A stretch of 52,618 nucleotides of DNA from a virus. Positions 1,814 to 48,627 of this stretch are shown piece by piece. The position numbers and the translations under genes were made by a program. The number at the start of each line of letters is the position of its first letter. Within the stretch, counting starts at the first letter, position 1. Location of the stretch: positions 1-52,618 of IMG/VR virus record IMGVR_UViG_3300009826_000007; one strand, written 5' to 3'. The notes beneath the pieces were generated by a model. It made no database searches, had not been told where the DNA came from, and saw only the letters and a list, made by a program, of their open reading frames with translations.

Positions 1814-2430
1814 TAGAATGGTAGTTAATGGTAAACGTGATGAAATGTATAAAAAGTATAGTTCCCTCTCATGATTATGCCATCCAGCTTTTTCCATGTG
1901 TTTGTTTGCCATATTTGACATATTGTACCATTTTATGCATTTGTTTACATTCTGATAACATGTTGATTATTTTTTGCTCACTTGTCTGTTGTACAGGCTA
2001 CTACATACACTATATACATATATACATGTGTATAGATATACATATATACTACCATATAACGTATGTAGTAGATATATGGTATATGTATAGTGATATATAC
2101 ACATATTAGTACTATATATACACACATATATATGTATATAATGTATGTATGTTTATAGCCGTGTACTGGAATTCTGGAACAAATTCACTCATGATTTACC
2201 GTGCCGAAATTCTATCACACAAAATCCGAAAAGTAAATTGCGTTGGTCAAACTCATTTTTGTCATGCTTGAAGGGTAAGTATAAGGGTATAGACATATAT
2301 GCATAAACGTATTAAGTTGTAGTTATAGGGTTTATAGGCATTTAAAGGGTGTAATGATACACATGTGATACTTGTGCAACATGAAAATCTTTTATAAATT
2401 TCCCATTTCGCACGAAAAAATTTGTCAGAC

Positions 2431-2497
2431 TATTCCATATATGGTTCGTATGTAAGGACATGACCCTCGTCTTTACATACGAACCTTATATGGAATA
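2431..2497. repeat. Long inverted repeat (about 25-27-bp arms, 13-nt loop)
   Basis: ttccatatatggttcgtatgtaagg pairs with ctttacatacgaaccttatatggaa. There is one mismatch and one G-T pair. Confidence 0.9.
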
Positions 2498-2580
2498 CAC
2501 CACAACATTTTTTGACAAAATATGGCATAATTTAGTAGATATGAGCCAAATATGTCATATTTTTCCATATATATGTGTAC

Positions 2581-2630
2581 CGCCCCCCGTCCTGCCGCCG
2601 CCGCCGGGCGCACACCTCCCCCATCCACTC
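2581..2630. other. Isolated GC-rich island in an AT-rich non-coding region
   Basis: cgccccccgtcctgccgccgccgccgggcgcacacctcccccatccactc has 41 of 50 G+C by my count. Confidence 0.85.
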
Positions 2631-2845
2631 AATCCATATATATAAATACCTCCCAAAAATTTCGGACATACAAAATAACATTCATGTATATATTTCACGA
2701 GTACCAAAAATATTTCGATATAATGATTGCTATTACATTTTCCATGATATACAATATATTGTAATTAACGGGCGCTATCTCCCATACATTGTACTAACGC
2801 CTGTTAATTTCTCTTTTGTGCGTATTTGGTGGAGTGCATTTGGTG

Positions 2846-2892
2846 AAAGGCAATGTACGCATGGCGTTGTGTACATTGCCTTTGACTTTTTC
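2846..2892 (+). terminator. Perfect 13-bp stem hairpin followed by a T-rich tract (intrinsic-terminator-like, plus orientation)
   Basis: aaaggcaatgtac (2846-2858) pairs with gtacattgccttt (2871-2883), followed by gactttttc. No annotated gene lies upstream. Confidence 0.4.
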
Positions 2893-3338
2893 GTCATAAA
2901 TTTCGAACGTACTTCTACATGCAAACATACATGTATGTCTGTACTCACATACAAGCATACATATATACATATATACATATATACAAGCATATATACATAC
3001 ACATCCATGTAAATACCCCAAGCTCATATATATTCCAAGCATATATTTATATATAGGCATGTCTACACGTAAAAAATACATTCCACAAATTTCGAACACA
3101 ATCAATCAGATATGTTGATATATATTTCGAGTATCAAAAATTTTTCGAGGAAAGATTGTATATATATTCCGGGTATCATATAATGGGGTTGGGTATTCAG
3201 GTATATGCTCAATCAGCCCTCACTGATTTTATATGTTTTATATGACAATTACGTTAGTTCGCCATAACTAATGTAATTGTTTAGGCACAGCCATTCTCCA
3301 AAGCTCAAAAACAAATATATTTCCACAATCCTACAATT

Positions 3339-3397
3339 TAGCGCATATTAAACTTTTTCGTTAAGCAATTCCGAAAACGCTTAATATGCGCTATTTT
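3339..3397 (+). terminator. Hairpin/attenuator-like structure just upstream of the first rightward ORF
   Basis: tagcgcatattaa (3339-3351) pairs with ttaatatgcgcta (3381-3393). There is an inner ttttcg/cgaaaa stem, then tttt. ATG 3424 lies 30 nt downstream. Confidence 0.4.
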
Positions 3398-3423
3398 GCT
3401 TGTAATTACGAAAGGGAACAAAA

Positions 3424-3702: not shown

Positions 3703-3710
3703 CAAAATAT

Positions 3711-3782
3711 TGGACTATCGCCAAACGGTAAGGCACTAGACTTTGACTCTAGTATTTGTTGGTTCGATTCCAACTAGTCCCG
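3711..3782 (+). tRNA. tRNA-Gln (anticodon UUG, 3743-3745), no encoded CCA
   Basis: - Hand-folded cloverleaf: acceptor TGGACTA/TAGTCCC with a 1:72 mismatch.
- D arm GCCA-AACGGTA-AGGC, as in E. coli tRNA-Gln.
- Anticodon arm CTAGA-CTTTGAC-TCTAG.
- T arm GTTGG-TTCGATT-CCAAC.
- Discriminator G. Confidence 0.88.
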
Positions 3783-3807
3783 TAAAAAAGATGAGTGAGG
3801 GGGAAAC

Positions 3808-37136: not shown

Positions 37137-37835
37137 CTATTTGGCTGATTCCCCGTAAAGTTCATTTGCTAGTTTGATGTACAAAAAATATTCGTCAATA
37201 TATTTTTCTGCATTAGCCTCTTTTGCTATAGCTTTATAAGATTTTAACCATTCTTCAAGTGTGTGAATTTGACATCCAATTTTCAACTTGTTTCTGGATA
37301 CCATACATACAGACATCCTTGAGCCTTGAATATACAAGGGGGAAGTTCTCCATATGTCCTTATTCACCCACGCCGAGCCGGTTACATACGTCGAGTCGCA
37401 TATACGCGCCGAGCCGAATACACGCGCTGAACCGGATATACGCGCCAAGTCGGATACACGCGCCAAGTCGGATACACGCGCCGAACCGAATACACGCGCC
37501 GAACCGAATACACGCGCCGAACCGAATACATGCGCCAAACCGGATACACGCGCCGAACCGGATACACGTGCAAAGTCGGATACATGTGCCAAGTCGGATA
37601 CATGTGCCGAGTCGGATACACACGCCGATTTGGTTGCAACCGCTAAATTGGATACAACCCCATCATCAGCAACCCATGCTTTATCTAACAAATTGTATTC
37701 GGATTCAATCCAACCGCCAATATCTCCGGCACTAATCGTAAAAGCCCCATTTTCAAATGAATTTACGCATCTAATGCGCTGCACTAGTCTCCCATTTACT
37801 TCTTTAGTTTCGCCCGTAAACTCCCATTTTTTCAT
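37137..37835 (-). CDS. Beta-helix (hexapeptide-repeat) protein, paralog 1
   Basis: The N-domain is MKKWEFTGETKEVNGRLVQRIRCVNSFEN...GDIGGWIESEYNL. About 15 hexapeptides follow (GSARVF, GSARVS, DLARVS...). The C-domain is unique (PLYIQGSRMSV...IGCQIHTLEEW). Confidence 0.8.
   Translation of the reverse strand: MKKWEFTGETKEVNGRLVQRIRCVNSFENGAFTISAGDIGGWIESEYNLLDKAWVADDGVVSNLAVATKSACVSDSAHVSDLAHVSDFARVSGSARVSGLAHVFGSARVFGSARVFGSARVSDLARVSDLARISGSARVFGSARICDSTYVTGSAWVNKDIWRTSPLYIQGSRMSVCMVSRNKLKIGCQIHTLEEWLKSYKAIAKEANAEKYIDEYFLYIKLANELYGESAK
37369..37638. repeat. About 15 tandem 18-bp repeats (cgcgccgaaccgaataca-type) encoding the hexapeptide beta-helix
   Basis: Units were read off at 18-bp steps from 37369. 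Three consecutive units are identical (37477-37530). Confidence 0.9.
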
Positions 37836-37963
37836 TTTTTCAACCTGTCGAGCTGCTCAAAATGTGTATGCGGTTCTGAAAACGATTTGCATTTTTCGCA
37901 TTTAGTCATTCCGCGCAATGCCATTTTTTTAGCATAGCAGATTAAATCTTCAATTCTTTTCAT
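37832..37963 (-). CDS. 43-aa protein coupled between the methyltransferase and beta-helix genes
   Basis: Translates as MKRIEDLICYAKKMALRGMTKCEKCKSFSEPHTHFEQLDRLKK. There are ATGA overlaps at both ends. Confidence 0.5.
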   Translation of the reverse strand: MKRIEDLICYAKKMALRGMTKCEKCKSFSEPHTHFEQLDRLKK

Positions 37964-38544
37964 ATACCACAATTCCTTTCTACTTCTGCAATTGCCGCTA
38001 AAATCGGGTATATTTGCTGTGGTACAACGGCGTTGCCCACAAAAAATACTCGTGATCGTCTGTGGGGCGCTCCGACAGCCGCAGCCTCATAATTAAAAAT
38101 CCCGATGTCATAGCCTTCACGTTCCAAATCCTGACAAATTGTGTCCCCGGCAATTGGCAAAATTCCAGGTACGTTTTCAACCAATACCCAATGCGGCGCA
38201 AATTCCCGGATAATTCTGCACATTTCTGGCCATAAATAACGTCCATCCCCTTTTCCCTTTTGTTTTCCTGCCACGGAAAAGGGGGTGCATGGTGGGCCTC
38301 CGGAAATAATGTCAACTGTTCGGGAACCTGTTCGTTTGTAAAATGATTCTGCTGTGACATCTTTTATGTTCCTCCACCGCGGCACATTCGGCCAATGTTT
38401 TTCTAAAATTTTTGTCGGATAATCGGAAATTTCACATTGTCCAACAGTTTTAAAACCTGCCCATTCAGCGGCAATGTCAATGCCTCCAATGCCCGAAAAA
38501 AGGCTAAAATGTGTTAGTTTTTCCTGATTCATAAACATCACCAC
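37960..38544 (-). CDS. DNA (cytosine-5) methyltransferase catalytic core lacking a target-recognition domain
   Basis: Motifs seen are FSGIGG (I), GGPPCTPFS (IV), ENVPG (VI), and HRRSRVFFVG (VIII) running straight into GNAVVPQ (X). The protein is only 194 aa. Confidence 0.8.
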   Translation of the reverse strand: MVMFMNQEKLTHFSLFSGIGGIDIAAEWAGFKTVGQCEISDYPTKILEKHWPNVPRWRNIKDVTAESFYKRTGSRTVDIISGGPPCTPFSVAGKQKGKGDGRYLWPEMCRIIREFAPHWVLVENVPGILPIAGDTICQDLEREGYDIGIFNYEAAAVGAPHRRSRVFFVGNAVVPQQIYPILAAIAEVERNCGI

Positions 38545-39539: not shown

Positions 39540-39758
39540 TTAACTCTTACAAACGCCCTCCAATTGCTCGTATGTTGCCAGGTATAACCGCCCGCTTTCT
39601 TCCAAAAATTGGTTACGTAGGCTTTGAAATTTCATGTCAAAATCAATCAAAATATTTCTTATCTCATCCGGCGTGTATTGGTATGTTACATTTTCAAACC
39701 TGCCAATATTTTCAAATGTTATCATAATTTCACTCCCTGTTTTCATTCTAACTGGCAT
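39540..39758 (-). CDS. Hypothetical (72 aa)
   Basis: GGGAG RBS. It is the first ORF after the 330-nt leader. Confidence 0.5.
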   Translation of the reverse strand: MPVRMKTGSEIMITFENIGRFENVTYQYTPDEIRNILIDFDMKFQSLRNQFLEESGRLYLATYEQLEGVCKS

Positions 39759-40071
39759 TGAGACGCTCTATTTTGCGTTTTAAACCTCGTCTAACTTGCT
39801 TAACGTGATTTCCATACAAATAAACTCGGAAGCGCTGGAAAGCCCTTTTATTCGCGTCTGATAGCACAAACAAATTTATGTAGTCAATTCGATTCTCTTA
39901 TTGCCCTATGGCTCTGTGACCCTTTCTAAACTTTTCGGGATGCTATCACGCATATAGCGCTGAAACACATTTATTTACGTTTTAAACCATGTTAAACACG
40001 TTAGACGTAATTTTGCACACAAAATATTAGGGACGCTCAAACCCCCCCTTTATTCGCATCTGGAGGCATAT

Positions 40072-40220
40072 GTGCAGCGCCTGGTTTGGACACGCTGCAA
40101 CTGTTCTAATGTTTCGCGATGTCGTTCAACATCCATTGACACCATTGTATACCATAAATAAAATGGTGTCAAGCGTTTTTTTTAAAAAAATTAACTTTTT
40201 TTGCTGGAAATTTTTTGAAG
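40072..40220 (-). promoter_or_regulatory. Repeat cassette copy 1 (palindromic promoter/operator plus leader hairpin)
   Basis: - The core 40118-40202 is identical to the other two copies.
- Inverted repeat ttgacaccatt (40136-40146) / aatggtgtcaa (40162-40172).
- Minus strand TTGACA-17-TACAAT; plus strand TTGACA-17-TAAAAT.
- GC hairpin gcagcg...cgctgc. Confidence 0.7.
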
Positions 40221-40227
40221 GATTTTT

Positions 40228-41124
40228 TTATGCGTCCAAAAGTTCAAGCAATGCCTTTTTGTTTTCCATGCCATTGTGAATGCGCCAACTTTTTCCAGTA
40301 ACTTCAAAATTCGCACAAATTTCGACAATCCGATTGTAAATTCTGTCGGATGTATCGCGTTTACCGGTTCGTGCATCCACTATGGATAAATTTTCCCGCA
40401 ACTCGTTTAGATCCAAATTGGTTGTGACGATAAGCGGTTTTTTTGCCCGTGAGCGTGTATCTATAACACTGTAAATTTTTTCATATGACCAATATGATTT
40501 TTGTTCAATGCCTAAATCATCCAAAATTAGAAGTTCGGCATCGCGGATCGCGTTAAGTATTTCAATCTCTCGGACATTTTCATTACTGCCATATTTTACA
40601 TAACCGTCCTGAATGATTTTTAAAATTCTGCCTGCAGAAATAGCCAAAACTGTTACGCCTCGTCGGTGCAGTTCGTTAGCAATTGAATACGATAAATATG
40701 TTTTTCCATTGCCGGATACACCATGCAAAAGTAACCCGCGATTATTGGCAAAAATTTCAGGCCATTTATCACAATATTTTTTCCCGATGTCGTAGAGTTT
40801 TTGATTGTCCCTAAAAATCCAATTGTCAAAGGTTGAGTTCTTAAAATTTTTGTCCGCAAGCGAATATTCACGATAACGATCCAATTTTCTGTCAAAATCC
40901 CGTTGCGCTGTTATTCGCCTGATTTCGTCAAATTCTGCCCGCTGACATTCACATGCAATTCTCATTCTGCGAATAAAATCACCAATTTTGATGTCTGTTT
41001 GCATCGGTTTAAGGCATTCGTCACAAATTTCAATCGGTTTGTTAAATTTTTGTTGATGTGATACATGCATATTCATCTGGTTCATTATTGGCATTTCTGC
41101 CAGAATTGCTCCCACCGAATTCAT
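40228..41124 (-). CDS. DnaC/IstB-like helicase-loader ATPase
   Basis: Walker A is LLLHGVSGNGKT and Walker B is ELLILDDLG. The N-terminus has Cys pairs. The start is uncertain because it overlaps the upstream gene. Confidence 0.8.
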   Translation of the reverse strand: MNSVGAILAEMPIMNQMNMHVSHQQKFNKPIEICDECLKPMQTDIKIGDFIRRMRIACECQRAEFDEIRRITAQRDFDRKLDRYREYSLADKNFKNSTFDNWIFRDNQKLYDIGKKYCDKWPEIFANNRGLLLHGVSGNGKTYLSYSIANELHRRGVTVLAISAGRILKIIQDGYVKYGSNENVREIEILNAIRDAELLILDDLGIEQKSYWSYEKIYSVIDTRSRAKKPLIVTTNLDLNELRENLSIVDARTGKRDTSDRIYNRIVEICANFEVTGKSWRIHNGMENKKALLELLDA

Positions 41125-41923
41125 ATACTTTTCCTCCTTTTGTTTTTATTTGATCCCAAACAATACCCTGCCAATTATTGGACATGCAATTATTAATGGC
41201 ATCAATAACGGCATTTTCCCCAAAATCGGCGGCGTTTTTCTGGATTTTATTTAACAACGATTTTAATCCCGTGGGTTTGTACGCTAAATTTTTTTCGGTT
41301 TTATATTGCAAAAAATTATCCACAGCATCGCCTAACGAATCGCTAAAAACGTAATTATTGCGTATGTCCGCAGTCTTTTCTTTGTCTTTTTTTGGAAAAT
41401 TTTTAGGTTTATTCTCCCTCCCCCCCCCAAGGGGTTTATCTTTAATATCTAAACCTAAACCTAAACCTAAACCTAAACCTGGGGCCCCCATTCCGGTTCC
41501 ATGTTGGTTCCATTCTGGTTCCATTCCGGTTCCATCCTGTCCCCATTCCGGTTCCATTCCGGTTCCATGTTTTAAATAATAACAACCTTCAATTTCATGC
41601 AATAATTTTTTTTCGTTTTGGTGTATGGTCGGGTTATATCGGTCTTTTTTTATATAATTGTGTTGCTTCCAGTGCGAAATAACAACAACTCCGCTGTTTA
41701 AACCGTGGTCATCGAATGAAATAATAAAATTTTTATCAGCTAACACTTTCAGGTCATCACTATTCGCCCCAATCATACGGGCAATGGCTTTTGCGTTTCC
41801 TAAAAAACCATCGTCATCGGCCCGCATGTTTAGATCATAATATAATAAACGTGCAGCCATCGGCATATCCATAAAATCATCTGTGTTAATTTTATCCTTT
41901 GCGATCATCCGTCTACCTGCCAT
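41042..41923 (-). CDS. Replication initiator / replisome organizer (DnaD-like C-terminal domain)
   Basis: The N-domain is MIAKDKINTDDFMDMPMAARLLYYDLNMRADDDGF. A repetitive linker follows (GTGMEPEW repeats, GLGLGLGLGL). The C-terminus is AVIDAINNCMSNNWQGIVWD. It lies upstream of the DnaC-like gene. Confidence 0.7.
   Translation of the reverse strand: MAGRRMIAKDKINTDDFMDMPMAARLLYYDLNMRADDDGFLGNAKAIARMIGANSDDLKVLADKNFIISFDDHGLNSGVVVISHWKQHNYIKKDRYNPTIHQNEKKLLHEIEGCYYLKHGTGMEPEWGQDGTGMEPEWNQHGTGMGAPGLGLGLGLGLDIKDKPLGGGRENKPKNFPKKDKEKTADIRNNYVFSDSLGDAVDNFLQYKTEKNLAYKPTGLKSLLNKIQKNAADFGENAVIDAINNCMSNNWQGIVWDQIKTKGGKVYEFGGSNSGRNANNEPDEYACITSTKI
41495..41566. repeat. Iteron array 1: GGTTCC at exact 11-bp phasing inside the organizer gene
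   Basis: GGTTCC occurs at 41495, 41506, 41517, 41528, 41550 and 41561. A degenerate GTCCCC occupies 41539. Confidence 0.9.
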
Positions 41924-42159
41924 TATTCACCTCGATTTGTCCACAATTTGCGTAGTTCATAGGTTTTTAACCATGCCACAATTCTACCGGGTTTATCGGC
42001 ACCCCCCGGCCATCCATATAATTCGCAATTTGCTAGGTATTCTTGCATTTTCTCAACTGGTAAAATTTCCAATGTAAAACCCCCATAGTTATCCAAAATA
42101 GAACCGCGTTGCGTCCAATGTTTCCTCCAAATATTCCTCCAATTCCCACGGAATGCCAT
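41923..42159 (-). CDS. Hypothetical; probably shorter (internal Met at 42048)
   Basis: The track ORF overlaps the upstream gene by 71 nt. Starting at MQEYLANCELYGWPGG removes the overlap. Confidence 0.4.
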   Translation of the reverse strand: MAFRGNWRNIWRKHWTQRGSILDNYGGFTLEILPVEKMQEYLANCELYGWPGGADKPGRIVAWLKTYELRKLWTNRGE

Positions 42160-42436
42160 TGTCTATGCTGAAAACGCAAACATCACCTTCGACACAATTA
42201 TCAATTATTGATGAATCTGCACAACATTTTCTTAACAATTCTCTCAGTTTGCCTCTATCTTTTGTTTTTGTCGCGATACAATTATCGCCTATTTGAAAAT
42301 CTTCACCCACCAATCCAACTCCTACATCTTTCAAATACTTATAGATTTCGCGTACTGACATATCGGCCAAATCATCATTTTGAATGATGTAGCAGGACGA
42401 TGAGGAATTTGTCACAAAATCATGTCTGTATTTCAA
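42089..42436 (-). CDS. Acidic 115-aa protein with a TNSSSS motif; homologous to the C-domain of beta-helix paralog 2
   Basis: CYIIQNDDLADMSVREI...EGDVCVF...YLEETLDATRFYFG aligns with CYIIKDEYFANMSLREI...NGDVCIF...YLMESWGATQYCFG. Confidence 0.65.
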   Translation of the reverse strand: MKYRHDFVTNSSSSCYIIQNDDLADMSVREIYKYLKDVGVGLVGEDFQIGDNCIATKTKDRGKLRELLRKCCADSSIIDNCVEGDVCVFSIDNGIPWELEEYLEETLDATRFYFG

Positions 42437-42614
42437 TTTCTTGATCCTCCACGCTGTCCACGGTGGGATATCCGACCTTTAATAATGCTTGATAAATTTG
42501 GAATGACATAGAAGCACCGTGCGAATCTTTTCGTTTTTTCAATTCGTTTAACATACTCATAGGCAACCAGATTGACGTTCTTTTCTTGCCCGCGCATTCT
42601 TGTTTGTTTGTCAT
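42420..42614 (-). CDS. Ribbon-helix-helix (CopG/Arc-like) DNA-binding protein
   Basis: KRTSIWLPMSMLNELKKRKDSHGASMSFQIYQALLK fits a beta strand followed by two helices. Confidence 0.6.
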   Translation of the reverse strand: MTNKQECAGKKRTSIWLPMSMLNELKKRKDSHGASMSFQIYQALLKVGYPTVDSVEDQEIEIQT

Positions 42615-42631
42615 TTATAACACTCCTTTCA

Positions 42632-42871
42632 TCAATCATCCTGCGGCATTTGAAAATATTGGGTGTCCGTGGAAGACAACCAGGCGGCCAACTCGTCCAT
42701 TACTTTTTTCGTGGTGGTTACGTCATCGTAACAACCCAGAAAATGTCTTTCTTTTTCACCAAAATAGATGTGAATGAAAAAATCGCTATTTATGGACGGC
42801 ATCACTACAATGTTTGTAAATTTGCGTATTGGAATAATTTGACTTTTGTCCTGTGTAAATATTGTTCTCAT
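42632..42871 (-). CDS. Hypothetical (79 aa)
   Basis: AAGGAG lies 5 nt before ATG 42871. The track start is 42889. Confidence 0.55.
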   Translation of the reverse strand: MRTIFTQDKSQIIPIRKFTNIVVMPSINSDFFIHIYFGEKERHFLGCYDDVTTTKKVMDELAAWLSSTDTQYFQMPQDD

Positions 42872-42978
42872 TTTTTCTCCTTTTTTCACTTTTTTTTAAA
42901 ATGTGAAGCCCCAGCCGGGGTTGTCCCCACAGGGGGGGGACGCGCCGGGGCTTTTCCTTCGCCTTTAAATTTTCAATG

Positions 42979-43857
42979 TTATCCAAAACAATATTGTGTT
43001 GCGCCCCACGATTCCATCAAATAATTATTAACATCGCCAAATGTGTATTCGGCTGGATTAAAAATACAAACATCGCCATTTTCGCAGAAACTAAGTATCA
43101 CATCGATGTCGTCATCACTGCCACCATATTGGTGAATTAATTTAATTAAATTTTTCTTGTATTTCATTCGCGTTACAAAGTACAAGTAATCCATTTTGTA
43201 TCCTGTTAATGTTTCGCATTGCTTCGCGTCATAACCTGTTAATGCTTCGACTGCAAAATGCTTTCGGATTTCACGCAATGACATATTTGCAAAATACTCG
43301 TCTTTGATTATATAACATTTTGATTTTTGCGCGGGTTCAGCGCCCAGAGATGTTTCCGGCGTATCATCATCATCGGACACCCGCATATTACCGCACACCT
43401 GCATGTTTCCGCATATTTCCGCATGGCCGAACACCACGCCATTATTACACACCACTGCATTACCATATACCTGTGAATCCCCGTACACCTGCGAATCCCC
43501 GTACACCTGCGAATCCCCGTACACCATTGAATTATTACGTACCACCGCATTATCGAAAACCCACGCATAATCGAAAACCTGCGAACAATCGCGTACCTGC
43601 GCATCACCGCACACCCACGAATCACCGCGTATCCACGCATCACCGGACGCTATCGCGTTATCGAACACACACGCATCACCGGACACCCACGCATTTTCAA
43701 TTAAATTGTCCTCAGACTCGATCCAACCGCCTATTTCCCCGGTATCAACAGTTACATTTTTATTTTCAAATGAATTTACGCATATAATGCGCTGCAATGT
43801 TCTGCCATCTAATTTTTTTGTTTCGCCCGTGAATTCCCAATTTTTCATTTTCGCCAT
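42979..43857 (-). CDS. Beta-helix (hexapeptide-repeat) protein, paralog 2
   Basis: The real start is MAKMKNWEFTGETKKLDGRTLQRIICVNSFEN, after AAAAGGAG. The track ORF runs upstream through the promoter cassette. Hexapeptides include VYGDSQ x3. Confidence 0.8.
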   Translation of the reverse strand: MAKMKNWEFTGETKKLDGRTLQRIICVNSFENKNVTVDTGEIGGWIESEDNLIENAWVSGDACVFDNAIASGDAWIRGDSWVCGDAQVRDCSQVFDYAWVFDNAVVRNNSMVYGDSQVYGDSQVYGDSQVYGNAVVCNNGVVFGHAEICGNMQVCGNMRVSDDDDTPETSLGAEPAQKSKCYIIKDEYFANMSLREIRKHFAVEALTGYDAKQCETLTGYKMDYLYFVTRMKYKKNLIKLIHQYGGSDDDIDVILSFCENGDVCIFNPAEYTFGDVNNYLMESWGATQYCFG

Positions 43858-43888
43858 TTTATTTTCTCCTTTTCTCATCCTTATGTGT

Positions 43889-44025
43889 GGTGCAGCGCTA
43901 GGTTTGACACGCTGCACCTGTTCGCGATGTCGTTCAACATCCATTGACACCATTGTATACCATAAATAAAATGGTGTCAAGCGTTTTTTTTAAAAAAATT
44001 AACTTTTTTTGCTGGAAATTTTTTG
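43889..44025 (-). promoter_or_regulatory. Repeat cassette copy 2
   Basis: The core 43926-44010 is identical to the other copies. The inverted repeat is at 43944-43954 / 43970-43980. It lies 32 nt upstream of ATG 43857. Confidence 0.75.
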
Positions 44026-44035
44026 CTGGTTTGTT

Positions 44036-45025
44036 TTAATATTGCCCAATAATCCCATTTGCTTTTAATGCTGCGAAAATTCGGACTAAGGAACCCTTGA
44101 AGCCTATAACATCGTCCGGGTCATGCTCGCCTGTTAACCTTTTTGTTTCGCGTAACTCGTCCCGGATTTCTTTGGCGATGTCTAATTCGAACCGCACGCC
44201 CCGGAATATATCTTCTTTGAGTTTTTGTATTGCCTGTTCACAGTTTATTTCCGTCATTTTGATGTGCATTTTTGCGCCCTCGCGAATGTTGGCTATTTCT
44301 TCGTCTTTGGCAGATAATTCTGCTTCAAATTTTTTGTTGTTGGCTACAATTTCCGCATTGCGATCTATTCTATTTGTATCGTGTAGACGGCTGATTCTAT
44401 TACTTATTTCGGTTCTGCGATCCATCGTCTCTTTAATTCGCGCATTTTCTGCCTTCAACTCACGGATTTCGGCCTCTTGGCGCTCGATCAATCCCTCACA
44501 TCCAATGATTTCGGGTGCAGGCGTGTTATCATTTAATTGTCTAACGCCATTTTTATATATTGTGAGTTCAACTGGTTTTTTCGATTGCATGGTTTTGTCT
44601 GGCAAAAATTTGTATTGAATCCATTTGTCGTTGCCACCAATTTCACAATTGCCGCCTGCTGTATTAATCACCGACGCGTTGCCGGTTATTTTAGAATCCC
44701 AAATTTCCGATTCGTGGACAGCTGCAGAATTGTCAACAGTTGTGTTGATTATTGATGTATTTTTTGCAATAAATGCACAACCGTAAACCATAGAATCGCT
44801 ATCCAACCACGCGTTATATCGCAAATTGGCATCAATTTGAATCCAACCGCCCATTTCCCCGGTTTTAACAATCACGTTTTTATTTTCAAATGATTTTATG
44901 CAATGTATTTGTCGCAATCTTATTTTTGCCAGCCCCCCTGTAATTTTACAGGGGATTGACACTATTTTTGTTTCGCCCGTATAATCCCAGGTTATTCCTC
45001 TGTTTGATTTTTGCATTTTCGCCAT
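44036..45025 (-). CDS. Beta-helix N-domain protein, paralog 3, with a C-terminal coiled coil
   Basis: MAKMQKSNRGITWDYTGETK...IHCIKSFENKNVIVKTGEMGGWIQ, followed by a long charged helical region. Confidence 0.75.
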   Translation of the reverse strand: MAKMQKSNRGITWDYTGETKIVSIPCKITGGLAKIRLRQIHCIKSFENKNVIVKTGEMGGWIQIDANLRYNAWLDSDSMVYGCAFIAKNTSIINTTVDNSAAVHESEIWDSKITGNASVINTAGGNCEIGGNDKWIQYKFLPDKTMQSKKPVELTIYKNGVRQLNDNTPAPEIIGCEGLIERQEAEIRELKAENARIKETMDRRTEISNRISRLHDTNRIDRNAEIVANNKKFEAELSAKDEEIANIREGAKMHIKMTEINCEQAIQKLKEDIFRGVRFELDIAKEIRDELRETKRLTGEHDPDDVIGFKGSLVRIFAALKANGIIGQY

Positions 45026-45061
45026 TTTTTTTCTCCTTTTTCGCTCATCCTGTGGGGTGGA

Positions 45062-45203
45062 GTGCAGCGCCTGGTTTGGACACGCTGCACCTGCTCAAAC
45101 GATGTCGTTCAACATCCATTGACACCATTGTATACCATAAATAAAATGGTGTCAAGCGTTTTTTTTAAAAAAATTAACTTTTTTTACTGGAAATTTTTTG
45201 AAG
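45062..45203 (-). promoter_or_regulatory. Repeat cassette copy 3
   Basis: The core 45101-45185 is identical to the other copies. The inverted repeat is at 45119-45129 / 45145-45155. It lies upstream of ATG 45025. Confidence 0.75.
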
Positions 45204-45216
45204 GTCTGTTTTTCCC

Positions 45217-45465
45217 CTATTTTGCGCGTTTTTCCATATATTCAACCAATGCGGGGGTCGCCCGCCATGATACGGCACCCGTCATGTTTACCGCCCCGAT
45301 GTCAATCAATGTGGTGAAAATGTCAAACATCAAATAACGGTCGATGTTTAATAATGCTGGGGAACGTGCAGCTTTTAACGTTACATTGCCCGCTGTGATG
45401 AAATTGGGTAATTTTGGGTATCGGTCAAACAATATTTCCAGTCGTTCAATATTTTTTTCATCCAT
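45217..45465 (-). CDS. Hypothetical (82 aa)
   Basis: ORF overlapping the stop of the MCM-like gene by 8 nt. Confidence 0.55.
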   Translation of the reverse strand: MDEKNIERLEILFDRYPKLPNFITAGNVTLKAARSPALLNIDRYLMFDIFTTLIDIGAVNMTGAVSWRATPALVEYMEKRAK

Positions 45466-47338
45466 TTATTTTATTTCCCCCGTCTATTTGTTCGATTATA
45501 TCAATCAGTATTTTTTCAGGTCGATAAGTGGAGCTGGATTGGATAGTTATTAATTTGCGTTTAATCATGTTAACCAGTATTTGCGATCCAATAATTTGAG
45601 TTGTTTCATTATTTAATGCGTTTAAGAAATTTATTCCCCGGAATATGGGTGTGGTTAATATTGCCTTCACGCCTGGGTGCAATTGTAAAAGTTCACGTAT
45701 GAAAATAATATTTTGGTTTCGTATTTCGCGCATTCGTTTTAATTCCTGCACGTAAATGCTGTAACTCATAGACCGTTTGGACAAACAAAATTCTAAAAAT
45801 TCAATGGCAAAATTTAGGTGTTTTTCTACAATTATGAGCTGTCCGCCTTTTATCGACCCCAATAATACAGCGAAAGCGCATGATAATCGTAGTAATTTTT
45901 CATGTGCCGTCATGCCAACAATAAATGGGGTTCCGCCCATTTCATCGTTAATGTAATCGGCGGCATCGTGCAGGTTATTTTTAAAATTATCATCGTAACA
46001 AATGTCGTTGGCCGCCATTGTCCACGCCTGTTTTATTAACGTCCGCCAATTGTCTACATTGATTTCGTAAAAATTTTCAATTTTTTCAAATGTATTTGTA
46101 TTTGTATCTAAATCTACATCTAAATCGCTGTACGCGGCGGAAATGACTAAATCAAATTGTGATTGTCCTTTGGCATTTGGAATAAAATCCTGAAATGCGC
46201 CGTATCCCTTCCAGAAAAAATCCTGAATGTCTGCATTATTTTTGGGCGTGGCCAACCAAATTAACCGGGTACGTGTTTTCGCCTCGCCCTGCACGATGCC
46301 ATCGAATGCGATTGATTCCGTATTGCAGGCATTTACAATATTTCGGATGTCGTATGGATCGATCCTGTTGGCATTCCCAATTGCCAATAACCCACGGTCA
46401 TTATTCGGAAACGCCCCCCATGTGACAAATTTTGATTGGCCAAATTGTTGTGTTTTCCCAATAATGTTGGTTTCCCCATTTGTATATTCGCCCATCCCGA
46501 TTACATCCACAAAACGCTGCACCATTTGTGTTTTGCCAATTTTTGTATCACCGATACAAATTGTATTTAACCGCCCGCGAATAGTTTTATTTTCCCACGG
46601 AATCCTGTCCACAGAACAATATGTCAAAATCATAGCGCCAAATAAATCAATACGCCCCTCGATTTCTAATACTGGCAACCATTTTTTGTAAAAAAATTCG
46701 AAAAGTTCAATGGCGCTATTCGCCGCATTAGCAACCGCCTGGATGCTGGCTAATTCTTTTTTCCGTAAAAGTGGCGCAAATTTTCCGGGCCGATCAAGCC
46801 GTTTGACATCACGAATTAAATAACATTCCATTTTTGTGTTAGGGTCAACAACTTTCATAGCTGTCAAATTATATTTTCGTGTCGGAAATAACCGTTGCAT
46901 TTTGTGTACATACATACCAAATTTGCATTTGTCAGCGGGCGAAGCCATGTTTTGAAAAACAATTTTTTGTACATTGGTATATTCAATCGGCGTTATTTTT
47001 ACTTTCTCGCATCTGAATTTTTTTTTCGCAAATTCACGCCATGCCCGCGCCCCGCGATTAACATAATCAACTGTGTTTTGAATTGGCAAAATTATAATCT
47101 CTTCTTTTTTGAATTTTGGGGCCAATATGCATTTTTTCCTGCAGTTTTTTATTTTGCATTCGCATTTAATTTTTGTTGGAATAACATAATTTTCGGGGTC
47201 TACGCCGATAACTGTTACGTTGTCAAATTTGATTCGGCGGGTTGTTTTTTCTGTTGTTTCAACAATATCATCATTCAAATTGCCTTGTCCTCCTTTCGGT
47301 TCCGGTCTGGTTCCATTTCGGTTCCGGTCTGGTTCCAT
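45458..47338 (-). CDS. MCM-like AAA+ protein with an N-terminal Zn/OB-like region
   Basis: GDTKIGKTQ corresponds to the MCM Walker A, and ...TRLIWLATPK to the sensor region. SQFDLVI sits where MCM has SRFDLIF. CECKIKNCRKKC is a Cys cluster. An alternative start is TTG 47278 after AAAGGAGG. Confidence 0.6.
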   Translation of the reverse strand: MEPDRNRNGTRPEPKGGQGNLNDDIVETTEKTTRRIKFDNVTVIGVDPENYVIPTKIKCECKIKNCRKKCILAPKFKKEEIIILPIQNTVDYVNRGARAWREFAKKKFRCEKVKITPIEYTNVQKIVFQNMASPADKCKFGMYVHKMQRLFPTRKYNLTAMKVVDPNTKMECYLIRDVKRLDRPGKFAPLLRKKELASIQAVANAANSAIELFEFFYKKWLPVLEIEGRIDLFGAMILTYCSVDRIPWENKTIRGRLNTICIGDTKIGKTQMVQRFVDVIGMGEYTNGETNIIGKTQQFGQSKFVTWGAFPNNDRGLLAIGNANRIDPYDIRNIVNACNTESIAFDGIVQGEAKTRTRLIWLATPKNNADIQDFFWKGYGAFQDFIPNAKGQSQFDLVISAAYSDLDVDLDTNTNTFEKIENFYEINVDNWRTLIKQAWTMAANDICYDDNFKNNLHDAADYINDEMGGTPFIVGMTAHEKLLRLSCAFAVLLGSIKGGQLIIVEKHLNFAIEFLEFCLSKRSMSYSIYVQELKRMREIRNQNIIFIRELLQLHPGVKAILTTPIFRGINFLNALNNETTQIIGSQILVNMIKRKLITIQSSSTYRPEKILIDIIEQIDGGNKING

Positions 47339-47380
47339 TTCGGTTCCATTCTGGTTCCATTCTGTCCCCGTTCCGGTTTC
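47298..47380. repeat. Iteron array 2: GGTTCC at exact 11-bp phasing at the 5' end of the MCM-like gene
   Basis: GGTTCC occurs at 47298, 47309, 47320, 47331, 47342 and 47353. Degenerate units follow at 47364 (GTCCCC) and 47375. The 24-mer at 47353-47376 matches 41528-41551 with 2 mismatches. Confidence 0.9.
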
Positions 47381-47387
47381 GGATATT

Positions 47388-47422
47388 AAAAACGCCCTAA
47401 GCGGGCGCGGTTGTTTTTTTTA
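47388..47422 (-). terminator. Short GC hairpin flanked by A and T runs (bidirectional-terminator-like)
   Basis: The minus strand reads A8-caaccg-cgccc-gctta-gggcg-TTTTT. It lies about 30 nt after the stop at 47440. Confidence 0.4.
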
Positions 47423-47439
47423 AATTAGATTTTTTGAAA

Positions 47440-47862: not shown

Positions 47863-48627
47863 TTAAAATTCCTCCTTTTCCGTGATTCCAAGCACATATC
47901 GCATTGTGGGGTTAATAAAATCTCCCCCAGCGCCTCTTCGACTTTTTGCAGGCCATTTTCCTTTGGATTTGGTTGAGGCCTTGTAGCGCCCCATTAAATC
48001 GGTTTCAGTGTGTACTACAATTCCAAAATATGACGGCATTTCTTGTACCATTTTCCCATGGATGGCTGGGCCACCTAAAATCGCGCCGGACAACTCGTCC
48101 TTGATTAATGTTTCCTGCATGATGAATATCTGATTTACGGGGCATTTGCGCAATTCCTGTATAGACAATTTGTTCAAATCGGTCAACATGCCCCAATGTT
48201 GTAATTCAACACCCTTGCGGAATCCTAATACACCCGTAAATCGGTCATGGTTCTTTTGGCTACGCAATTCCTCGACCATATAAAATTGTATTTCAGACCA
48301 CGTATCCCACACAATCCAATCAAACGGGCTAGTAATTTCTGTATTAAAAATTGTAGACCAATGCTTGGGGTCATTTTTCTTTACCGCCTTGTACGCGGTA
48401 TCCAAATCCCTAAAATTTTCAAATGACACCACAGTAATATTATCGCGGAATTTTGCCAGACCGTCTGCACATGAAATTGTTTCGTACCCCTGATCAATGT
48501 CAATAAATAATACGTTGCCAATTTCGCCCAATGTGCCACATAAATGTGTTTTGCCCGTGCCGGACGCGCCATAAACCAAAACAAAATACGGCTTGGATAT
48601 ATCTTTTTTTGCATCTATAATTTTCAT
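47863..48627 (-). CDS. Sak4-like RecA-fold ATPase
   Basis: Walker A is VLVYGASGTGKTH and the Walker B-like motif is WIVWDTWSE. Confidence 0.75.
   Translation of the reverse strand: MKIIDAKKDISKPYFVLVYGASGTGKTHLCGTLGEIGNVLFIDIDQGYETISCADGLAKFRDNITVVSFENFRDLDTAYKAVKKNDPKHWSTIFNTEITSPFDWIVWDTWSEIQFYMVEELRSQKNHDRFTGVLGFRKGVELQHWGMLTDLNKLSIQELRKCPVNQIFIMQETLIKDELSGAILGGPAIHGKMVQEMPSYFGIVVHTETDLMGRYKASTKSKGKWPAKSRRGAGGDFINPTMRYVLGITEKEEF

Follow-up and report, generated by a model that had tools for sequence, protein, structure and literature searches.

Three cassettes with an identical core in an integrase-encoding phage most likely form a triplicated host-type promoter module resembling PeSL cassettes

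In the phage genome studied here (IMG/VR record IMGVR_UViG_3300009826_000007; "the window" is the whole stretch analysed, 52,618 nt), three copies of one intergenic cassette each hold a dyad from which a near-consensus promoter can be read on either strand. Are these cassettes switches, as an initial annotation proposed, or simply heads of transcription units? All three copies that it reported were found (Table 1), and their core is indeed 100% identical, though it measures 86 nt rather than 85; copies 1 and 2 have 105 identical nt in common. The edge of identity is sharp, with 86/86 nt in the core versus 63–75% in the leader and in the upstream DNA next to it, and ~52% once the coding sequence is reached. 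Because the flanks have diverged to this degree and the downstream paralog proteins are 34% identical (N-terminus of the 293-aa protein against the 329-aa protein), the core has most likely been held uniform by a strong homogenising force, gene conversion and/or strong selection, an earlier suggestion that these comparisons back.

Table 1. Positions, in the window, of the cassette elements and of neighbouring features
Feature	Copy 3 or single position	Copy 2	Copy 1	Strand	Remarks
Cassette	45062–45203	43889–44025	40072–40220	-	Copy 3 spans the entire gap from the 82-aa ORF (stop 45217) to the 329-aa beta-helix gene (ATG 45025); copy 2 separates the 329-aa gene (stop 44036) from the 293-aa beta-helix gene (ATG 43860); copy 1 lies immediately past the DnaC-like gene (stop 40228), structured non-coding leader next
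86-nt identical block	45100–45185	43925–44010	40117–40202	-	Minus-strand promoter positions -65 to +21
UP-element-like tract	45158–45185	43983–44010	40175–40202	-	-38 to -65; A7-G-TTAA-T7-A8-C
-35 hexamer TTGACA	45150–45155	43975–43980	40167–40172	-	
-10 hexamer TACAAT	45127–45132	43952–43957	40144–40149	-	17-bp spacer
Predicted start site A	45120	43945	40137	-	From spacing
Dyad	45119–45155	43944–43980	40136–40172		11-bp perfect arms, 15-nt loop
Promoter-like TTGACA-17-TAAAAT	45119–45147	43944–43972	40136–40164	+	Judged a by-product of the dyad
Leader hairpin 1, 5'-proximal	45101–45116	43926–43941	40118–40133	-	GAUGUU-GAAC-GACAUC
Leader hairpin 2	45062–45090	43889–43918	40072–40099	-	GTGCAGCG-N13-CGCTGCAC
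Non-coding leader			39726–40071	-	Imperfect long inverted repeat 39769–39811 / 39984–40026
329-aa beta-helix paralog	44036–45025			-	phrog_5070/7964; copy 3 is its putative promoter
293-aa beta-helix paralog		42979–43860		-	Copy 2 is its putative promoter
64-aa ribbon-helix-helix-like (RHH) ORF		42420–42614		-	Copy 2 operon; candidate regulator only
Perfect TTGACA-N18-TATAAT	44956–44985			+	Only one in the window; lies antisense within the 329-aa gene, at its 5' end

Read on the minus strand, every copy opens no more than ~10–15 nt past the upstream stop codon, fills the whole intergenic region and presents the same order of elements: stop codon, UP element, TTGACA-17-TACAAT, a 5'-proximal hairpin and a GC-rich hairpin, followed in copies 2 and 3 by an AAGGAG Shine-Dalgarno sequence and ATG. 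Near-consensus sigma-70-type promoters do occur on both strands, as had been claimed, each scoring 11/12 (TTGACA-17-TACAAT on the minus strand of all three copies, TTGACA-17-TAAAAT on the plus strand). The minus-strand promoter also has a discriminator that begins GG and, ahead of the dyad, the A/T tract that had been likened to an UP element, with T7 at -53 to -47 and A8 at -46 to -39. The UP-element consensus reportedly goes back to Estrem (1998/1999). Set against that consensus (see also PMC4390567), the tract matches at 8/9 proximal and 10/11 distal positions and is close to it. The early proteins that were tested yielded neither a phage sigma factor nor a phage RNA polymerase. From sequence, we infer that the cassettes most likely constitute a triplicated sigma-A/sigma-70 host-type promoter module; its great strength, its start sites and any stabilisation of the mRNA are predictions on the same footing.

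Both leader hairpins are predicted in every copy. Hairpin 1 occupies +5 to +20, within the identical block; hairpin 2, which the initial annotation described as conserved, occurs in all copies as GTGCAGCG-N11-13-CGCTGCAC; its stem measures 9 bp (loop 12 nt) in copy 2 and, one pair weaker, 7 bp in copy 1. The cassettes end 28 nt (copy 2) and 36 nt (copy 3) before the ATG of the beta-helix paralogs, for which 30–40 nt had been given. Copy 1 does precede a long leader, ~347 nt (previously put at 330 nt) to the next RBS and ATG at 39725, or 412 nt when counted from the predicted transcription start, and this leader folds better than 100/100 shuffles. From 33 to 52.6 kb every ORF lies on the minus strand, to which the GC skew also points, and the cassette neighbours form a replication module: copy 2 heads a block of an 85-aa ORF, the RHH, a 115-aa ORF (42089–42436), a 78-aa ORF and the DnaD-like and DnaC-like genes. 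The C-terminus of the 293-aa protein is homologous to the 115-aa ORF, pointing to domain shuffling beside the cassettes. The phage further encodes a Sak4-like annealase, a resolvase-like protein and an integrase.

Our preferred reading, with a probability of about 0.68, is that each intergenic cassette forms the entire head of a minus-strand transcription unit and is read by RNA polymerase with the host primary sigma factor. Contacts of the alpha-CTD on the UP tract together with the near-consensus hexamers would make these very strong, factor-independent promoters, and the 5'-proximal hairpin would stabilise the mRNA. The three copies most likely restart transcription within a ~20-kb leftward array of early and replication genes, ahead of the structured ~400-nt leader and of two fast-evolving beta-helix accessory genes, the second of which would also head the RHH, DnaD-like and DnaC-like block. 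Copies 2 and 3 would stem from an old duplication of the promoter plus gene 5' end, because they share the RBS and MAKM; copy 1 would have arisen via ectopic recombination. Gene conversion and/or strong selection would then have kept the core identical, the annealase and the resolvase-like protein being encoded by the phage itself.

The architecture fits, point by point, what has been published on the PeSL (promoter-early stem-loop) cassettes that T4-like myoviruses carry (Arbiol et al. 2010, PMC2839356; Comeau et al. 2014, PMC4122927), and the comparison makes a cassette of that kind, not a new kind of genetic switch, the most likely parallel. In both, repeated intergenic cassettes start at the upstream stop codon with an AT-rich tract, a consensus sigma-70-type promoter and a stable stem-loop able to overlap the -35 or -10, then a Shine-Dalgarno sequence and start codon; the downstream gene is variable and of unassigned function, and the region shows gene duplication and shuffling. 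Several differences stand out. First, there are 3 copies here versus ~50. Second, the carrier is not T4-like; it is temperate, encodes an integrase and has loaders of the DnaD/DnaC type. Third, the stem is A/T-mixed and takes in the whole core promoter (-35 to +2), whereas the PeSL stem is of the G-run/C-run type. Lastly, the present cassettes have a perfectly identical core and two extra leader hairpins.

Clustered strong early promoters are familiar from lytic phages, as in T7 (A1-A3), T5 and the SPO1 host-takeover module, and the morons of temperate phages usually carry their own downstream terminator. With these promoters and with the moron concept (PMC2629481) the cassettes share several near-consensus host-type promoters for early or accessory genes in independently transcribed units; the lytic-phage promoters, however, are similar, not identical over 86 nt, and a moron-type downstream terminator was not seen at the cassettes. 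If unregulated, the promoters would fire in the lysogen, which is awkward for an integrase-encoding phage unless that is the purpose.

No close relative of the phage was present in any collection searched. A single promoter built in the same way (terminator, T7A7 tract, TTGACA...TATAATGGTGTCAA, Shine-Dalgarno sequence) heads the replication module of a distant relative (L019), whose DnaD-like protein is 52% identical; this promoter shares the spacer motif CCATTTT...ATGG with the cassettes, and its dyad requires a 2-nt bulge. In the L001 lineage promoters of this design stand in arrays, each small gene having its own, and the two dyad arms drift independently: at arm-2 position 7 all four bases occur, facing a fixed -35 C. 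In one of its promoters, Pb, the two differences still permit G-U pairing on the sense strand.

The dyad itself, TTGACACCATT-N15-AATGGTGTCAA, is exact in the three copies, just as first described, and had 0 matches in 100 shuffles. Its arm 1 covers -35 to -25 and its arm 2 covers -9 to +2 of the minus-strand promoter, and a stable hairpin is predicted for either strand (-14.7 and -14.3 kcal/mol; z -4.2 and -3.6). Four ATGG/CCAT motifs lie at -29, -18, -8 and +2, ~10 bp apart, where 0.43 are expected and just 0.25% of this genome's windows reach four. Among the roles considered, the most likely is that of a putative site at which a phage regulator binds to switch the promoters off, and the next most likely that of a PeSL-type stem-loop attenuator.

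An operator-centred account modelled on P22 Pant/Arc is possible but doubtful: a dedicated phage repressor, such as the 64-aa RHH protein, would use the 37-bp dyad as its operator, occlude the -35 and +1 at all three promoters together and give an expression burst followed by shut-off. The positions of the arms and the ~10-bp motif spacing favour it, as does the distance between outer hexamers (31 bp) and inner pentamers (21 bp), ~3 and 2 helical turns, which therefore set the dyad elements on one helix face; the arm centres, however, are 26 bp apart, or ~2.5 turns. The recurrence of the spacer motif in L019 also speaks for a binding site, but the 2-nt shift there would break a rigid half-site, and in the L001 lineage the individual arms are not conserved. 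Just 5/11 arm positions are free of promoter constraint (-35 hexamer, -10 AAT, GG discriminator), and extension of the dyad by chance may therefore apply. As for the repressor, the main immunity operators (1746–1816) look different from the dyad, and a second regulator would therefore be needed to silence such strong promoters. The downstream RHH-like ORF is a plausible candidate, with a weak Arc match (Pfam Arc E = 0.002) and Arc and CdbA as best PDB matches, but it is an orphan, a search for homologs having found none, and its structure model is of low confidence. The 220-aa HTH protein, also put forward earlier, is an unlikely partner because it adjoins its own, different triple palindrome (1746–1816). 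Arc binds a compact operator of 21 bp that lies between -35 and -10, versus 37 bp for the cassette dyad. Like P22 immI, with Pant, the ribbon-helix-helix repressors Arc and Mnt and the sar antisense RNA (PMC2629481), the locus combines a phage promoter predicted to be very strong, a small RHH-like gene in the driven operon, where autogenous shut-off is possible, and a candidate antisense RNA over the leader and downstream gene start; it differs in having no sequence relationship, no antirepressor and an antisense promoter at one copy only.

A PeSL-type, structure-centred account is unlikely; here the dyad stem-loop would attenuate minus-strand read-through or, with T8, terminate plus-strand antisense transcripts. 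PeSL stem-loops over the -35 or -10 do attenuate transcription experimentally (PMC2839356), and besides the stability of the hairpin on both strands, the bulge tolerated in L019 and the G-U compatible changes in Pb would suit it, but the sense-strand hairpin lacks a U-tract and the L001 lineage has uncompensated arm changes. On the plus strand GCG-T8 follows the dyad, as noted before. Of the resemblance to an intrinsic terminator claimed there, the stable hairpin stands; the 15-nt loop, the 3-nt GCG spacer between stem and T-run and the absence of a call in the terminator scan count against it. Read on this strand, the UP tract becomes T8A7, resembling a terminator tail, so the UP element accounts for the T8: the terminator look arises because the UP A-tract adjoins the dyad, and all UP-bearing L001 promoters of this design likewise look like opposite-strand terminators. 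There are no plus-strand genes here. One terminated transcript could be a ~175-nt antisense RNA from the window's only perfect consensus promoter, which is directed toward the copy 3 dyad and T8; this RNA, a lead only, folds well (z -2.7), but the promoter stands at 1/3 copies and arises in 8/100 shuffles, not significant alone.

Much less probable still is the switch of the initial annotation, in which RNA polymerase orientations compete and a regulator picks the direction. Each -10 does lie within the opposite promoter's spacer, both strands reach the same promoter score, occupancy by the two orientations must be mutually exclusive, and such competition has been documented at pseudo-symmetric promoters under strong activation of one direction (PMC12825309). 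The promoters are nevertheless not face-to-face as labelled: with predicted starts at ~45120 (minus, downward) and ~45154 (plus, upward) they fire outward, the predicted transcripts diverge without overlap, and the pair is therefore an interdigitated divergent one. The plus-strand promoter has no UP element, serves no gene, would begin AAGCGUUUUUUUU, and its transcripts would all be antisense to upstream genes. Its start site lies past the hairpin, straight into the U8 run, and the dyad cannot terminate transcripts of this promoter. Given the dyad, a reverse -10 (TAN-AAT) needs two extra bases only, roughly 10% by chance, and it is absent from L001 and L019, the only two comparable promoters found. 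We judge the plus-strand "promoter" and "terminator" to be by-products of the dyad adjoining the UP A-tract. The claim that no described phage circuit matches is not supported either, given the PeSL cassettes (PMC2839356, PMC4122927) and the pseudo-symmetric bidirectional bacterial promoters of Warman, Grainger and colleagues (bioRxiv 10.1101/2020.01.31.928960; PMC12825309). In the latter, symmetry likewise permits either RNA polymerase orientation, with divergent transcription and mutually exclusive binding, but that class shares one -10 and has starts 10, 18 or 23 bp apart, whereas the cassettes are symmetric in their -35 and start-site regions, have separate -10s and would have starts ~34 bp apart; the reverse direction of the cassettes is probably non-productive.

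Identical repeats of 86–105 nt are a classic source of misassembly, but a duplicated or collapsed repeat made by the assembler is barely conceivable here, as the copies differ in their downstream partners and each is flanked by unique, diverged sequence, and an independently assembled Logan contig (L172), 100% identical to 45129->43996, confirms the repeats by breaking inside their cores, as true repeats predict.

The three minus-strand cassettes reported in the initial annotation are all present, at 40072-40220 (copy 1), 43889-44025 (copy 2) and 45062-45203 (copy 3), as is the exact dyad TTGACACCATT-N15-AATGGTGTCAA at 40136-40172, 43944-43980 and 45119-45155. None of the window shuffles yields a match to this dyad. 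The core is indeed 100% identical in all copies, though its length is 86 nt (40117-40202 = 43925-44010 = 45100-45185) rather than the 85 bp claimed, and copies 1 and 2 have 105 identical nt in common. An assembly duplication, which had been named as grounds for dismissing the repeats, was checked and rejected: the sequence on either side of each copy is unique and diverged, and an independently assembled Logan contig (L172, SRR10512955) agrees, being 100% identical to the window from 45129 to 43996 and ending within the repeat cores. Short-read assemblers stop in this manner at true repeats. The observed cassettes are real and non-random.

Read on the minus strand, each cassette takes up the whole intergenic space. 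The layout of copy 3 is tabulated with the surrounding genes.

Elements of copy 3 and genes of the leftward array
Feature	Position	Strand	Remark
Stop codon of upstream gene	10-15 nt ahead of cassette	minus	copy 3 layout
A7-G-TTAA-T7-A8-CGC	-65 to -36	minus	copy 3 layout
-35 TTGACA	45155-45150	minus	copy 3
-10 TACAAT	45132-45127	minus	copy 3; after 17-bp spacer
GGTGTC, then predicted start	A 45120	minus	copy 3
Hairpin 1, GAUGUU-GAAC-GACAUC	+5 to +20, 45116-45101	minus	copy 3
Hairpin 2, GTGCAGCG-N13-CGCTGCAC	45090-45062	minus	copy 3; behind linker
AAGGAG (SD), then ATG	45025 (ATG)	minus	copy 3
Sak4-like annealase	47863-48627	minus	
MCM-like helicase	45458-47338	minus	626 aa
Beta-helix paralogs	44036-45025, 42979-43860	minus	phrog_5070/7964, function unassigned
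Arc-like RHH	42420-42614	minus	64 aa
DnaD-like loader	41042-41923	minus	
DnaC-like loader	40228-41124	minus	
Resolvase-like protein		minus	
C5 methylase	37960-38544	minus	194 aa
Third beta-helix paralog	37137-37835	minus	
ParM/Alp-like partition protein		minus	
Rep-like protein		minus	
Tyrosine integrase		minus	

A consensus scan bore out the near-consensus promoters on both strands, with scores of 11/12 for each in all copies (TTGACA-17-TACAAT on the minus strand and TTGACA-17-TAAAAT on the plus strand). The UP-element consensus of Estrem (1998/1999) reportedly comprises a distal (-57 to -47) and a proximal (-46 to -38) A/T subsite. Compared with this consensus, the UP-like T7/A8 tract of the cassette matches at 10/11 distal and 8/9 proximal positions (TTAATTTTTTT / AAAAAAAAC). 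UP consensus sequences are mostly A and T tracts, with A at -41 to -43 being critical (PMC4390567); the cassette tract has A at these positions. The arms of the dyad overlap the -35 and +1, and the hairpin that they form, with an 11-bp stem, is stable whichever strand is read (-14.7 and -14.3 kcal/mol, z -4.2 and -3.6). An Rfam search returned no RNA family at gathering score or at E <= 5. The best explanation of the cassette is a host-type promoter that would be very strong, joined to a stabilising leader, the whole module being triplicated and homogenised.

The window, which is the entire 52.6-kb contig, carries structural genes on the plus strand at ~4-32.7 kb and a leftward early/replication array on the minus strand at 32.7-52.6 kb. 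The gene set, including an integrase and a partition protein, argues that the phage is temperate and possibly a phage-plasmid, and the loaders, the strong AAGGAG SDs and the Alp-like partition protein suggest that its host is one of the Bacillota. A stand-alone 115-aa ORF at 42089-42436 is homologous to the C-terminal part of the 293-aa protein (42979-43320; E = 2e-6); this shared domain and the three N-terminal beta-helix paralogs mark the region out as a hot spot where genes are duplicated and domains shuffled.

The cassette resembles the promoter-early stem-loop (PeSL) cassettes of T4-like phages. PeSLs are recurring motifs that combine a sigma-70 consensus promoter with AT-rich DNA ahead of the -35 and a stable stem-loop, which lies between the hexamers, overlaps either one or sits beside them. 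Each begins at the stop codon of the preceding gene and finishes with the SD and start codon of an ORFan. They cluster in plastic regions, their stem-loops attenuate transcription, and recombination between copies shuffles genes (PMC2839356; PMC4122927). Likewise, every copy here has a sigma-70-like TTGACA-17-TACAAT promoter matching at 11/12 positions, an AT-rich A7-G-TTAA-T7-A8 segment at -65 to -39 and a stable stem-loop overlapping the promoter, and copies 2 and 3 run from a stop codon to the SD and start of a variable ORF, copy 1 being followed by a non-coding leader. There are also differences. First, there are 3 copies compared to ~50, in a region with paralog duplication and domain shuffling. 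Second, the composition and span of the stem differ and there are extra leader hairpins. Third, PeSLs belong to T4-like myoviruses, whereas this 52.6-kb genome encodes an integrase, a ParM/Alp-like protein and DnaD-like and DnaC-like loaders; since the phage is not T4-like, we file the cassette as PeSL-like in its working and not as a member by descent. These exceptions apart, the predicted sequence elements of the cassette fit those of PeSLs one by one, and the best explanation of its sequence appears to be a fresh example, in a temperate Bacillota-type phage, of a known composite promoter/stem-loop class. If so, composite cassettes so far described only from T4-like lytic phages would extend to an unrelated temperate phage, probably of a Bacillota host, in which they stay sequence-identical while the genes they drive diverge, supporting the view that they are a general device to express and shuffle phage accessory genes. 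The 86-nt core would also be a compact candidate promoter of very high strength for gut Clostridia or other Bacillota, combining UP element, consensus hexamers and a stabilising 5' hairpin.

The identical block extends from -65 to +21, that is, the UP element, core promoter and 5' hairpin and nothing beyond. Identity falls just outside it, to 63-75% in the remaining leader, 64-70% in the upstream 40 nt and ~52% in coding sequence, and the proteins of the two downstream beta-helix paralogs are only 34% identical. The RBS and first codons (MAKM) are still common to copies 2 and 3, indicating that the original duplication took in both promoter and gene and is old. On this pattern of identity, the core must have been either homogenised later by gene conversion or held by unusually strict selection. 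Conversion is favoured by the promoter family of metagenome contig L001, in which spacers diverge freely. Among the products of the phage itself are a Sak4-like annealase and a resolvase-like protein.

Close relatives were sought by megablast and sensitive blastn among annotated phages and plasmids, by matching the exact dyad to IMG/VR and GTDB genomes, and by locus searches in which the helicase or the DnaC-like protein served as seed; none turned up in phage, plasmid, IMG/VR, GTDB or metagenome collections. An exact match to both arms and their spacing was found once, in L001 (1-1895), whose coding strand has four tandem promoters, TTGACAcc...TGTGGTATAATGGTgTCAAgAA, one for each small gene; in one of them, Pa, the 11-bp arms and their spacing are exactly those of the window dyad. 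Relatives of the L001 phage (L173-L178), which come from aquatic metagenomes, are lytic phages that encode rIIB and have arrays of such promoters. This lineage, unrelated to the window phage, shows PeSL-like arrays with a promoter ahead of almost every small early gene, the consensus being an A-run, TTGACAyC, TGTGGTATAAT and GGTnTCAAgAA. Within it the two arms of the dyad change independently of each other: position 7 of arm 2, opposite the fixed -35 C, is G, T, C or A, the inner positions of arm 1 are variable, and some changes are G-U compatible, with consistent compensation absent. Only 5/11 arm positions (CCATT, -29 to -25) are free of promoter function, so that comparison across lineages gives weak evidence that the dyad is under selection. 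In L019, which is distantly related to the window phage (DnaD-like protein 52% identical), a single promoter heads the replication module in the order terminator, T7A7 tract, TTGACAAGCCATTTTTATGGCATTATAATGGTGTCAA and SD, and its dyad holds only with a 2-nt bulge. Among 80 DnaD-related viral loci (785 kb), no promoter with a downstream TGTCAA was found and repeated promoter cassettes were almost absent, suggesting that the triplication is peculiar to the window phage. A relaxed dyad search in IMG/VR (10-bp arms, gap 10-24) gave 12 loci of mixed spacing, GC and context, including integrase starts, which we regard as unrelated palindromes. TTGACA-N17-TAnAAT-GGTGTCAA was found at 71 genome loci, mostly in Clostridia, compared to ~4 expected under a uniform model; GGTGTCAA after the -10 was rejected as a Clostridia-specific element, as the baseline at the same loci (~31 exact consensus promoters per Mb, position-weighted probability 5e-5) accounts for the 71 hits. 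A control 8-mer gave 0 vs 6 viral hits and, containing a CpG, is a weak control.

The proposal that each dyad builds a face-to-face promoter switch fared unevenly. Mutual exclusion of RNA polymerase binding still stands. The orientation does not: each start (~45120 on the minus strand, ~45154 on the plus strand) sits at the -35 of the other promoter, so that polymerases would fire outward, leaving in opposite directions with RNAs that do not overlap. As predicted from sequence, the pair is interdigitated and divergent. Pseudo-symmetric bidirectional promoters are a described class with mutually exclusive RNAP binding, one common -10 and starts 10, 18 or 23 bp apart (PMC12825309). The cassette is like them, at the sequence level, in having promoter elements on both strands and outward starts; it differs in its separate -10s (45127-45132 and 45142-45147) and in starts ~34 bp apart. 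The same interdigitated divergent geometry was observed in a host genome, an Oscillospiraceae MAG (L072 1459-1495), where TTGACATTATTCTACTTATGGAATATAATGGTGTCAA gives an exact TTGACA-17-TATAAT on one strand and, on the opposite strand, TTGACA-17-TAGAAT. It lies upstream of a gene encoding a protein that starts MLKHGILGLL.

The switch-like interpretation is unsupported, as the plus-strand reading looks like a by-product of the dyad on several grounds. It is without a UP element, its transcript would begin AAGCGUUUUUUUU, and there is no gene for it to serve. It also follows almost automatically from the dyad, whose arms give TTGACA and the AAT of the -10; the reverse -10 additionally needs 'TA' alone in the A/T-rich loop, roughly 10% by chance. 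Lastly, it is unconserved, the reverse -10 being GCAAAT or worse in L001 and missing in L019. The plus-strand terminator suggested by the initial annotation does have a stable hairpin and T8, but its loop is 15 nt, a 3-nt GCG spacer intervenes and the terminator scan did not call it, intrinsic terminators being defined by a GC-rich stem, a loop of 3-8 nt and a U-tract 0-2 nt from the stem. Only 4/11 pairs of the plus-strand stem are G-C. The T8 is, on the predicted layout, simply the proximal UP A-tract read backwards, and all L001 promoters of cassette design likewise resemble opposite-strand terminators. The dyad cannot terminate its own plus-strand RNA, because the plus start lies downstream of the hairpin, and on the sense strand no U-tract follows the dyad hairpin.

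Among the roles that the dyad itself might have, we rank an operator first. Its arms cover the -35 and +1, and four ATGG/CCAT motifs lie ~10 bp apart at -29, -18, -8 and +2, a post hoc observation (0.43 expected; reached in 0.25% of windows). An Arc-like RHH protein is encoded within the copy 2 operon, although it is without any homolog among 5.8 billion proteins searched, which leaves it a candidate for binding only. It scores below the cut-off against Pfam Arc (E = 0.002, 18.3 bits; cut-off 20.4), its PDB matches are Arc and CdbA at E about 1, and its AF2 model (pLDDT 55) has an extended N-terminus and two helices; for both regulator candidates, the RHH and a putative 220-aa HTH protein, model confidence was below use for fold search. 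Near the left end of the window, three TTAGT-N5/6-ACTAA palindromes at 1746-1816 (GAGTTAGTCATAGCTAACTC, GAGTTAGTGCCAACTAACT, GGTTAGTCATGACTAACTAG) adjoin the 220-aa ORF (913-1575, minus) and its TTTACA-17-TATAAT promoter (1643-1615), and are probably immunity operators. They bear no sequence relation to the cassette dyad, suggesting that promoters this strong would need other silencing.

Behind the operator, and roughly equal to each other, we place a passenger symmetry of the dyad and a PeSL-type stem-loop attenuator or plus-strand terminator. A terminator is favoured by the sole perfect TTGACA-N18-TATAAT of the window (44956-44985, plus), which points at the copy 3 dyad and T8 from ~175 nt away, antisense within the first codons of the 329-aa gene, and 12/13 nt of its -35 region TTGACACTATTTT agree with the cassette TTGACACCATTTT. 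This predicted promoter could drive a putative cis-antisense RNA of 175 nt that would span the RBS and start codon and that folds well (z -2.7). However, at least one such site arises in 8/100 shuffles, and the antisense promoter is missing at copies 1 and 2. For the operator combined with the antisense lead, the closest regulatory analogy would be P22 immI (Pant, Arc, Mnt, sar; PMC2629481). That an orphan-RHH operator at three identical promoters and a copy 3 antisense terminator together form a P22-immI-like circuit on a mobile cassette seems improbable to us; if true, bursts of accessory and replication genes would be coordinated in a Bacillota phage or phage-plasmid. A LexA (Cheo) box in hairpin 1 was rejected on inspection by eye, GAAC-N4-GTTC being absent, as was an N4-type or Frpo-type single-strand hairpin promoter, whose stem would pair -35 with +1 and rebuild no promoter and which is superfluous where a full duplex consensus promoter is already there.

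Several other elements of the window were observed. The copy 1 leader (39726-40071, minus), ~350 nt of non-coding sequence, holds an imperfect long inverted repeat whose arms (39769-39811 / 39984-40026) are 74% complementary, along with a direct repeat CCC(C/T)TTTATTCGC(G/A)TCTG. It folds at -108 kcal/mol compared to -93 +/- 5 in shuffles and has no Rfam match; a decayed beta-helix pseudogene was rejected for want of similarity, and the leader may be either a structured RNA or an element resembling an origin, supplied by the strong promoter. Two arrays of 11-nt period (unit about GGTTCCATTCY, minus-strand core GGAACC) lie at 41449-41571, in the linker of the DnaD-like gene adjoining a (CTAAAC)5 run, and at 47294-47364, at the 5' end of the MCM-like helicase gene. 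Both resemble iterons and are candidate replication origins, and placement within a replication-initiator gene recalls lambda ori within gene O. A link between the cassette ATGG motifs and these arrays (41.5 and 47.3 kb) was rejected, as the core GGAACC is absent from the cassette. Before the MCM gene, 47392-47438 (minus) opens with TTCAAAAAATCTAATTTAAAAAAA, 79% identical to the upstream edge of the cassette, and has a good intrinsic terminator (GCGCCCGCTTAGGGCGT then T5) in place of a promoter.

Homologs of the MCM-like helicase (~40-45% identical) are all primase-helicase fusions of ~890 aa with zinc-ribbon and Toprim domains; the window protein is without the primase part, and a separate primase was not noticed in the window. 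The C5 methyltransferase ORF at 37960-38544 matches positions 3-161 of the 324 in the Pfam profile, roughly half, and is overlapped by a 120-aa ORF in another frame (37998-38360); it may be a frameshifted or split gene. Lastly, a large low-GC (33%) stretch without convincing ORFs at 1900-3400 contains ATATACAT-type simple repeats (about 1980-2160 and 2930-3060), an inverted repeat with 45-nt arms (2415-2459 / 2469-2513), a C-rich run (2580-2625) and a hairpin with a 16-bp stem and T-run (2846-2883), and a tRNA-Gln lies at 3710-3783.
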